A model generated the notes under the pieces. The model saw only the letters and a list, made by a program, of their open reading frames with translations, was not told the DNA's origin and did no database searches. 64,000 nucleotides of DNA. It comes from Escherichia coli. Lineage in GTDB: Bacteria; Pseudomonadota; Gammaproteobacteria; Enterobacterales; Enterobacteriaceae. The translations under genes and the position numbers were made by a program. Below, piece after piece: positions 11,793-12,730 of this stretch. Each line of letters opens with the position of its first letter. Position 1 is the stretch's first letter. Where the stretch lies: the NCBI RefSeq assembly GCF_050320075.1, contig NZ_CP190018.1. One strand, 5' to 3'.

Positions 11793-11840
11793 TTCGCTTT
11801 TTCTCAATAATACGTACCAAACGCTGGTAATGACTCCAAC

Positions 11841-12344
11841 TTATTGATAGTGTTTTATGTTCAGATAATGCCCGATGACTTTGTCATGCAGCTCCACCGA
11901 TTTTGAGAACGACAGCGACTTCCGTCCCAGCCGTGCCAGGTGCTGCCTCAGATTCAGGTTATGCCGCTCAATTCGCTGCGTATATCGCTTGCTGATTACG
12001 TGCAGCTTTCCCTTCAGGCGGGATTCATACAGCGGCCAGCCATCCGTCATCCATATCACCACGTCAAAGGGTGACAGCAGGCTCATAAGACGCCCCAGCG
12101 TCGCCATAGTGCGTTCACCGAATACGTGCGCAACAACCGTCTTCCGGAGCCTGTCATACGCGTAAAACAGCCAGCGCTGGCGCGATTTAGCCCCGACGTA
12201 TCCCCACTGTTCGTCCATTTCCGCGCAGACGATGACGTCACTGCCCGGCTGTATGCGCGAGGTTACCGACTGCGGCCTGAGTTTTTTAAATGGCGGAAAA
12301 TCGTGTTGAGGCCAACGCCCATAATGCGGGCAGTTGCCCGGCAT
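11841..12344 (-). CDS. insB: IS1 InsB (expressed as InsAB' transposase by -1 frameshift)
   Basis: 167-aa ORF overlapping the insA 3' end in the -1 frame, inside IS1. Confidence 0.85.
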
Positions 12345-12538
12345 CCAACGCCATTCATGGCCATATCAATGATTTTCTGGTGCGTACCGGGTTGAGAAGC
12401 GGTGTAAGTGAACTGCAGTTGCCATGTTTTACGGCAGTGAGAGCAGAGATAGCGCTGATGTCCGGCGGTGCTTTTGCCGTTACGCACCACCCCGTCAGTA
12501 GCTGAACAGGAGGGACAGCTGATAGAAACAGAAGCCAC
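12263..12538 (-). CDS. insA: IS1 InsA (transposition inhibitor / N-terminal part of transposase)
   Basis: 91-aa [46 protein letters not shown]... zinc-finger plus HTH, inside the IS1 ends. Confidence 0.9.
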
Positions 12539-12730
12539 TGGAGCACCTCAAAAACACCATCATACACTAAATCAGTAAGTTGGCAGCATCACCCCAAACG
12601 CTTACCTTTCAGGTAAGCGTTTTGACGATAAGCCCAACATCATTAAGCCAATACATACCCCATATCCAACTTGAACAACATCGCGCTTATCGTTAAGGTA
12701 TGCGCGTTTTTTATCCGCCAGGACCCAATT

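Follow-up and report, generated by a model that had tools for sequence, protein, structure and literature searches.

The stretch of Escherichia coli DNA analysed here, 64 kb in its full length and referred to below as the window, carries a complete IS1 element of the IS1B type between ilvN and uhpA. The insertion is real, recent and ordinary, and the copy has already been annotated in RefSeq. The best explanation as a whole is very probably a simple transposition into the arm of a hairpin, which took place once in a common ancestor and had a near-neutral outcome. According to this scenario, an intact IS1B-type element would have transposed into a horizontally acquired island of two genes between ilvN and uhpA, landing at its AT-rich right edge. 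The IS1 transposase would have made a 9-bp staggered cut at CCAAACGCT, a target overlapping the first seven left-arm bases of the hairpin, and the repair would have duplicated these 9 bp, placing the whole hairpin on the uhpA side and an orphan fragment of seven bases on the side of the second gene of the island, designated here as paralog B. This single event may be assigned to the common ancestor of a small ST38-like branch of phylogroup D. Since then, the transcripts of paralog B would enter IS1 antisense to insAB' before reaching the hairpin, and the 137 bp upstream of uhpA, comprising the hairpin and a core conserved in K-12, are unchanged.

The IS1 element and its target site

The element (768 bp) covers positions 11826–12593 of the window and is oriented on the minus strand, its left terminal inverted repeat (IRL, GGTGATGCTGCCAACTTACTGAT, 12571–12593, minus strand) pointing toward uhpA and its right one (IRR, GGTAATGACTCCAACTTATTGAT, 11826–11848, plus strand), found at the left side of the element, facing paralog B. 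Both ends match the pattern of IS1 ends with 0 mismatches; together they form an imperfect inverted pair of 23 nt each, with 78% complementarity. The degenerate end pattern is met twice in the 64-kb window, both matches being the termini of the element at 11826–12593 (0.01 expected by chance), and the same end-pattern search revealed neither a second IS1 copy nor a composite transposon in the window.

Concerning the coding part, insA (12263–12538, minus strand) starts with GTG, encodes 91 aa and gives the Pfam matches Zn_ribbon_InsA (3e-21) and HTH_Tnp_IS1 (1.7e-30). The insB' frame (11841–12344, minus strand), overlapping insA in the −1 phase, contains the DDE catalytic part (Pfam DDE_Tnp_IS1, E = 2.3e-78); the families PF03811, PF12759 and PF03400 all score far over their cut-offs in the IS1 frames. 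The A6C motif AAAAAAC of the programmed −1 frameshift (12281–12287, minus strand) corresponds to IS1 nucleotides 307–313, and the InsAB' fusion produced via this frameshift (11841–12538, minus strand) has 232 aa in translation; PGAP, too, gives a joined CDS. A promoter-like site within the IRL, CTGCCA-16-TATGAT (12559–12586, minus strand; 9/12 in the promoter scan), is directed into insA, and its position is the one we take to be that of the known IS1 promoter pIRL. The exact coordinates, the Pfam matches and the 232-aa fusion thus bear out the first-pass annotation, which had described a complete 768-bp IS1 with both inverted repeats and with insA and insB intact.

When compared with the IS1B and IS1C copies of K-12, the element is identical at 765/768 positions, the three substitutions being located at window positions 11890, 12332 and 12467; seven differences separate it from an IS1A-type copy (761/768). 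In its size, its ends, both frames, the slip site, the 9-bp duplication and the identity to IS1B (99.6%), the element conforms to the IS1 family. Identical DNA in two genomes bears the RefSeq label 'IS1-like element IS1B family transposase, programmed frameshift' with no pseudogene flag, and the copy, to judge indirectly from its intact frames and ends, is probably still active.

The element is bordered by an exact direct repeat, CCAAACGCT, present at 11817–11825 on the left and at 12594–12602 on the right, the two copies being 777 bp apart. A target duplication of IS1 is typically 9 bp long, occasionally 8, and the probability of finding a 9-bp repeat exactly at both ends of the element by chance is about 4^-9. 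The corresponding empty site was recognised in strain 266917_2 (locus L002), where the sequence reads ...AATACGTACCAAACGCTTACCTTTCAGGTAAGCGTTTTGACG..., with a single CCAAACGCT and no IS1, and equals exactly the window sequence minus 777 bp. The same is true for many genomes, in which the match to the 1,801-bp query, at 100%, spans 1,024 bp of the genome, i.e. the query minus 777 bp. With a 271-bp probe spanning the site, the uninterrupted form was found in 637 complete E. coli genomes, and a form split into two places in exactly two of the 1,110 genomes giving any match to the probe. These two genomes, Ec-U3 and YZLc1-3, are the only ones among 5,426 in which the IS1 insertion is present; the junction reads TACCAAACGCTGGTAATGAC. 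It should be noted that a query containing the IS1 itself gave 22 and 26 matching places in the chromosomes of the two carriers, which for the most part presumably represent IS1 copies.

The claims made earlier on this insertion can be judged against these results. The perfect 9-bp duplication reported around IS1 is confirmed by the two exact copies of CCAAACGCT opposed to the one at the empty site, and the proposed comparison with related strains lacking IS1 has yielded just such an uninterrupted site with one CCAAACGCT. The recency of the event is upheld by the ratio of empty sites (637 genomes) to occupied ones (2/5,426). Degraded copies, which would have spoken for an old insertion, were not encountered, the IS1 of both carriers being identical at 768/768 positions and flanked by perfect duplications.

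Carriers of the insertion and their relatives

The two carriers come from distant sources: YZLc1-3 was obtained from chicken faeces in Yangzhou, China, and Ec-U3 from human urine in Ouagadougou, Burkina Faso. The suggestion of a recent insertion holds, with the qualification that the insertion is shared by these two isolates and is not private to one of them. In the 25-kb comparison, Ec-U3 is identical to the window, with all the other genomes among the matches listed scoring lower. YZLc1-3 exhibits 0 mismatches against window positions 1–31714, beyond which 46 bp are missing from the iatC repeats and one core SNP follows at 40254, a position where the base of the window is seen in none of the four genomes compared. 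An initial impression that the carriers are not close to each other, given by the lack of YZLc1-3 among the best matches over 25 kb, was abandoned, as it is caused by the 46-bp iatC deletion and not by SNPs.

For three relatives with an empty site, WP4-S17-ESBL-08, 144 and LH85-a, the comparison with the window over about 46 kb gave 4–6 differences. Three nucleotide states, 8529G, 10188G and 23580A, are common to the window/Ec-U3 and YZLc1-3 and absent from all three of these relatives, the comparison covering five genomes and the direction of the changes being unpolarised. Of the three SNPs, two are non-coding positions of the island and the third is located in nepI, the protein accession of which differs, too. 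Both carriers agree in the position and orientation of IS1, in the duplication and in all 768 bases of the element. Taken together with the three SNP states that the empty-site relatives do not share, this indicates a single insertion inherited by Ec-U3 and YZLc1-3. The simplest account offered by the sequences would thus be that IS1 was inserted once, in an ancestor shared by the members of a small ST38-like branch, at a time when this branch had already separated from the empty-site relatives but had not yet spread between continents.

The assignment of the branch relies on strain Ecol_545, which deviates from the window by about two differences in 25 kb, as judged from the bit score, and which, as reported in a preprint, closely matches an outbreak strain of ST38 and phylogroup D (10.1101/850628). 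This closeness, along with the link to ST38 made in the preprint, suggests that the lineage of the window is probably ST38 or very close to it, within phylogroup D.

Two other regions in which the genomes vary may be mentioned here. In the iatC repeats (window 31714–31758), where YZLc1-3 is without 46 bp, its iatC is annotated as two CDS, the relatives having a single gene of about 11 kb; the gap in YZLc1-3 is due to a genuine loss or else to faulty assembly of the 291-bp repeat array. The second region is an element of about 11 kb at tRNA-Sec (window 46663–57900), containing a primase-helicase gene among others. It is absent in WP4-S17-ESBL-08 and 144, and LH85-a possesses a different island there. 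The element of YZLc1-3 is related to that of the window, the two carriers differing at 12 positions inside the island, all within 2.3 kb, which points to some recombination in the tRNA-Sec region.

The hairpin, the paralog pair and the ilvN–uhpA gap

Paralog B (10302–11792, plus strand; PGAP start at 10323), a hypothetical protein with 496 aa in the ORF list and also a CDS in PGAP, has its stop codon 33 bp before IS1. It forms a tandem with paralog A (431 aa), both being located at window positions 8752–11792 and sharing 25% identity (E = 4e-23); neither of them gave a match in Pfam, NCBIfam, PADLOC or PDB sequences. The island of these two genes (8.7–11.8 kb) has a GC content of 28–38% in comparison with 52–60% in the flanking core, and the IS1 is found at its right edge. 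It has long been known that IS1 prefers AT-rich DNA targets, and the composition of the island agrees with this preference.

The hairpin, AAACGCTTACCT-TTC-AGGTAAGCGTTT (12596–12622, plus strand), consists of a perfect 12-bp stem (100% complementary, 5 G-C pairs) and a 3-nt loop, is followed by TGACG, and occurs once in the window. Its predicted minimum free energy ranges from −16.9 to −18.9 kcal/mol with z of about −5 to −6, the values for 12596–12622 being −16.9 kcal/mol and z = −5.1. The first-pass annotation had pictured it as aaacgcttacc-tttcag-ggtaagcgttt; the hairpin does exist, although with one G counted twice in that description, the actual structure being 12 bp with a 3-nt loop or, alternatively, 11 bp with a 5-nt loop. 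At the empty site, it starts 27 nt past the stop codon of paralog B. The duplicated target, taken previously for the left arm, indeed overlaps this arm, but comprises just 7 of its 12 bases plus the two C's upstream of it. The right copy of the duplication rebuilds the whole hairpin beside the IRL, on the uhpA side, and the earlier observation of an intact hairpin regenerated downstream is therefore correct, 12596–12622 sitting between IS1 and uhpA. The left copy remains as an orphan arm fragment of seven bases beside the IRR, on the side of paralog B, and no significant fold was detected at this left junction (z = −1.3).

With regard to its conservation, the hairpin was retrieved in four other variants of the island—from two O157:H7 strains, ETEC4068 and 1604D011. 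Four of the five variants have an unchanged stem, and the loop is TTC, TTT or CTC; a single stem substitution, A to G, still permits G.U pairing, though on the plus strand only, and fully compensatory changes are lacking among these variants. The hairpin has been kept although the paralog proteins show only 76% (A) and 54% (B) identity between 1604D011 and the window, which illustrates a fast divergence of the pair between island variants, whereas the hairpin and the next 110 bp, as far as uhpA, are nearly identical.

To the first-pass annotation, this structure had looked like a terminator. A conserved hairpin with a variable loop is there; the tail, however, offers only TTTT, its sequence being T-GACGATA if the stem is counted as 12 bp and TTTTGACG if it is counted as 9 bp. 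The terminator scan, which demands at least five T within the eight bases directly after the stem, did not call the hairpin at 12596–12622, this T-tract rule having failed. The single match of the scan inside IS1 was discarded, since shuffled sequence gives as many. Likewise, a search of Rfam at a permissive threshold across positions 5000–14000 gave no match at the hairpin or at the IS1 junctions, istR being the only one returned. It is plausible that the structure serves as the 3' hairpin or the terminator of paralog B.

Several observations on the surroundings were made in the course of the analysis. The istR small RNA (window 6054–6183; Rfam, 145 bits) adjoins tisB upstream of ivbL-ilvBN, as in K-12. 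For paralog A (window 8752–10047), the PGAP CDS in the ST38-like genomes (9565–10047) covers the C-terminal 160 aa only; the reading frame extends over 431 aa without a stop, its product can be aligned along its entire length with the full-length annotated protein of 1604D011, and the start has probably been under-called in the ST38-like genomes. In O157:H7 the gene of paralog A is split into two CDS. The ilvN–uhpA gap (window 8500–12730) exists in at least three forms in E. coli: it is empty in K-12, with a length of 75 bp, it houses a DUF6708 gene on the opposite strand in Ecol_448, and it contains the paralog pair, in some form, in about 1,110 of the 5,426 genomes.

Possible effects of the insertion and comparison with known IS1 systems

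The sugar-phosphate regulator gene uhpA (12731–13321, plus strand), coding for a response regulator with the Pfam domains Response_reg and GerE and annotated as such in RefSeq, has its ATG 137 bp downstream of the IS1 end, and these 137 bp, including the hairpin and a stretch shared with K-12, are identical to the empty site. The standard promoter scan, requiring at least 4/6 in each hexamer, identified no plus-strand promoter in 11500–12800. In the lenient scan, the only plus-strand candidate between IS1 and the uhpA ATG is a weak putative hybrid promoter, TTGGCA-17-TACCTT (12580–12608, plus strand; 8/12), composed of a hexamer in the IRL (12580–12585) that matches the −35 box at 5/6 and of a hexamer in the left arm of the hairpin (12603–12608) that matches the −10 box at 3/6; in the reconstructed ancestral sequence, the same scan gives no −35/−10 pair at this place. 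Another candidate for the uhpA promoter, TTGAAC-17-TAAGGT (12671–12699), was rejected, as it reaches 7/12 only and is absent from the matches of the lenient scan. Our literature search retrieved no specific report of a mapped uhpA promoter or of IS1 at uhpA.

It may be imagined that the insertion changes the expression of uhpABC in either direction. The element could block the read-through from ilvBN and the paralogs into uhpABC or part the uhpA promoter from sequences upstream, the outcome being lower UhpA and UhpT and a reduced susceptibility to fosfomycin. IS1 is classically polar in both orientations. In the promoter table of K-12, ivbL--uhpABC is listed as one unit (PMC3946193), upstream read-through may thus contribute to the expression of uhpABC, and a loss of uhpA function leads to fosfomycin resistance (PMC7735965). 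Further lineages have an IS1 in the same gap, too, in one case with the removal of the sequence directly upstream of uhpA. Nevertheless, in island-bearing strains the conserved hairpin already separated paralog B from uhpA at the time of the insertion, so that little read-through would be expected to have been lost, and the 137 bp upstream of uhpA were left untouched; this possibility is consequently considered very unlikely. An activation, for its part, would start from the hybrid promoter described above, near 12615 inside the hairpin (in the loop or the right arm), and read into uhpABC; a transcript without the left arm would escape the hairpin, UhpA would be raised, and the induction of UhpT and the uptake of fosfomycin would be altered. 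According to PMC8764528, which cites Prentki et al. 1986, an outward-facing −35 box is present in the inverted repeat of IS1 and can give rise to a hybrid promoter when a good −10 box is available at a suitable spacing; the candidate is a pair brought about by the insertion. The same study stresses, however, that activation needs a good −10 box, and describes three outcomes of IS1 insertions, with increased expression for one gene, decreased expression for another and no change for a third. With a −10 box of 3/6, with the negative standard scan, and with no sign of selection on the insertion, given that its carriers amount to only 2 of the 5,426 genomes, an activation of uhpABC appears very unlikely. 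Overall, a near-neutral insertion is considered most likely.

A different question is whether the hairpin is a hotspot of IS1, into which the elements of Ec-U3 and YZLc1-3 were inserted independently. The ilvN–uhpA gap has received IS1 repeatedly, with at least five further independent events. The right ends of three of them lie within 12 bp of one another in a different, very AT-rich type of island. The events include those of Ecol_448 (205 bp upstream of the uhpA ATG, with the duplication ACATTTTAC), E03 (204 bp; a different isoform, with a deletion at the left) and muskdeer13-4 (193 bp; with a deletion reaching near yidE). Further ones are those of Eco-15 (475 bp; with an 8-bp duplication) and OZ040331 (an IS1A copy at 35 bp, with a deletion into the 3' end of ilvN), the arrangement of the latter having a near-identical match in OZ038787. 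None of these events, however, has hit the hairpin, and no additional split site exists among the 1,110 genomes with the region. Moreover, the elements of the two carriers coincide in every respect described above, the flanks do not differ over 31.7 kb, and both genomes have the three SNP states in common against the three empty-site relatives, on account of which independent insertions were rejected and have to be seen as very improbable. The repeated events in the gap might reflect selection on the expression of Uhp and not target preference alone.

Together with the three SNPs, the insertion is a lineage marker of a small ST38-like branch known from Chinese poultry and from a human urinary isolate of Burkina Faso, and it is a sign of recent IS1 activity in this lineage. 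If the expression of uhpABC or uhpT proved to be altered, the insertion would be more interesting, UhpT being an entry route of fosfomycin, yet the sequence gives no argument for that.

Among known elements, the IS1B and IS1C copies of K-12 MG1655 are the most similar ones, sharing with the window copy the length of 768 bp, the inverted repeats, insA, the A6C site and the insB' frame; the difference consists in the chromosomal site, which for the window copy is occupied only in Ec-U3 and YZLc1-3 among the 5,426 complete genomes. The other IS1 events in the ilvN–uhpA gap resemble it by their orientation, with the IRL toward uhpA at 35–475 bp from the ATG, this shared orientation being partly an ascertainment effect because the search joined same-strand matches only. 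They differ from it in their positions and island types, some of them represent different isoforms (714–767/768 identical), and in three cases the element lacks a duplication and borders on a deletion. As far as the IS1 hybrid promoters are concerned (PMC8764528; the afaA case in ST131), the likeness resides in an outward −35-like hexamer 8 bp from the tip of IS1 and facing the downstream gene; in contrast to them, the window presents a poor −10 box (TACCTT, 3/6) and a 12-bp hairpin interposed between the IS1 end and the gene.
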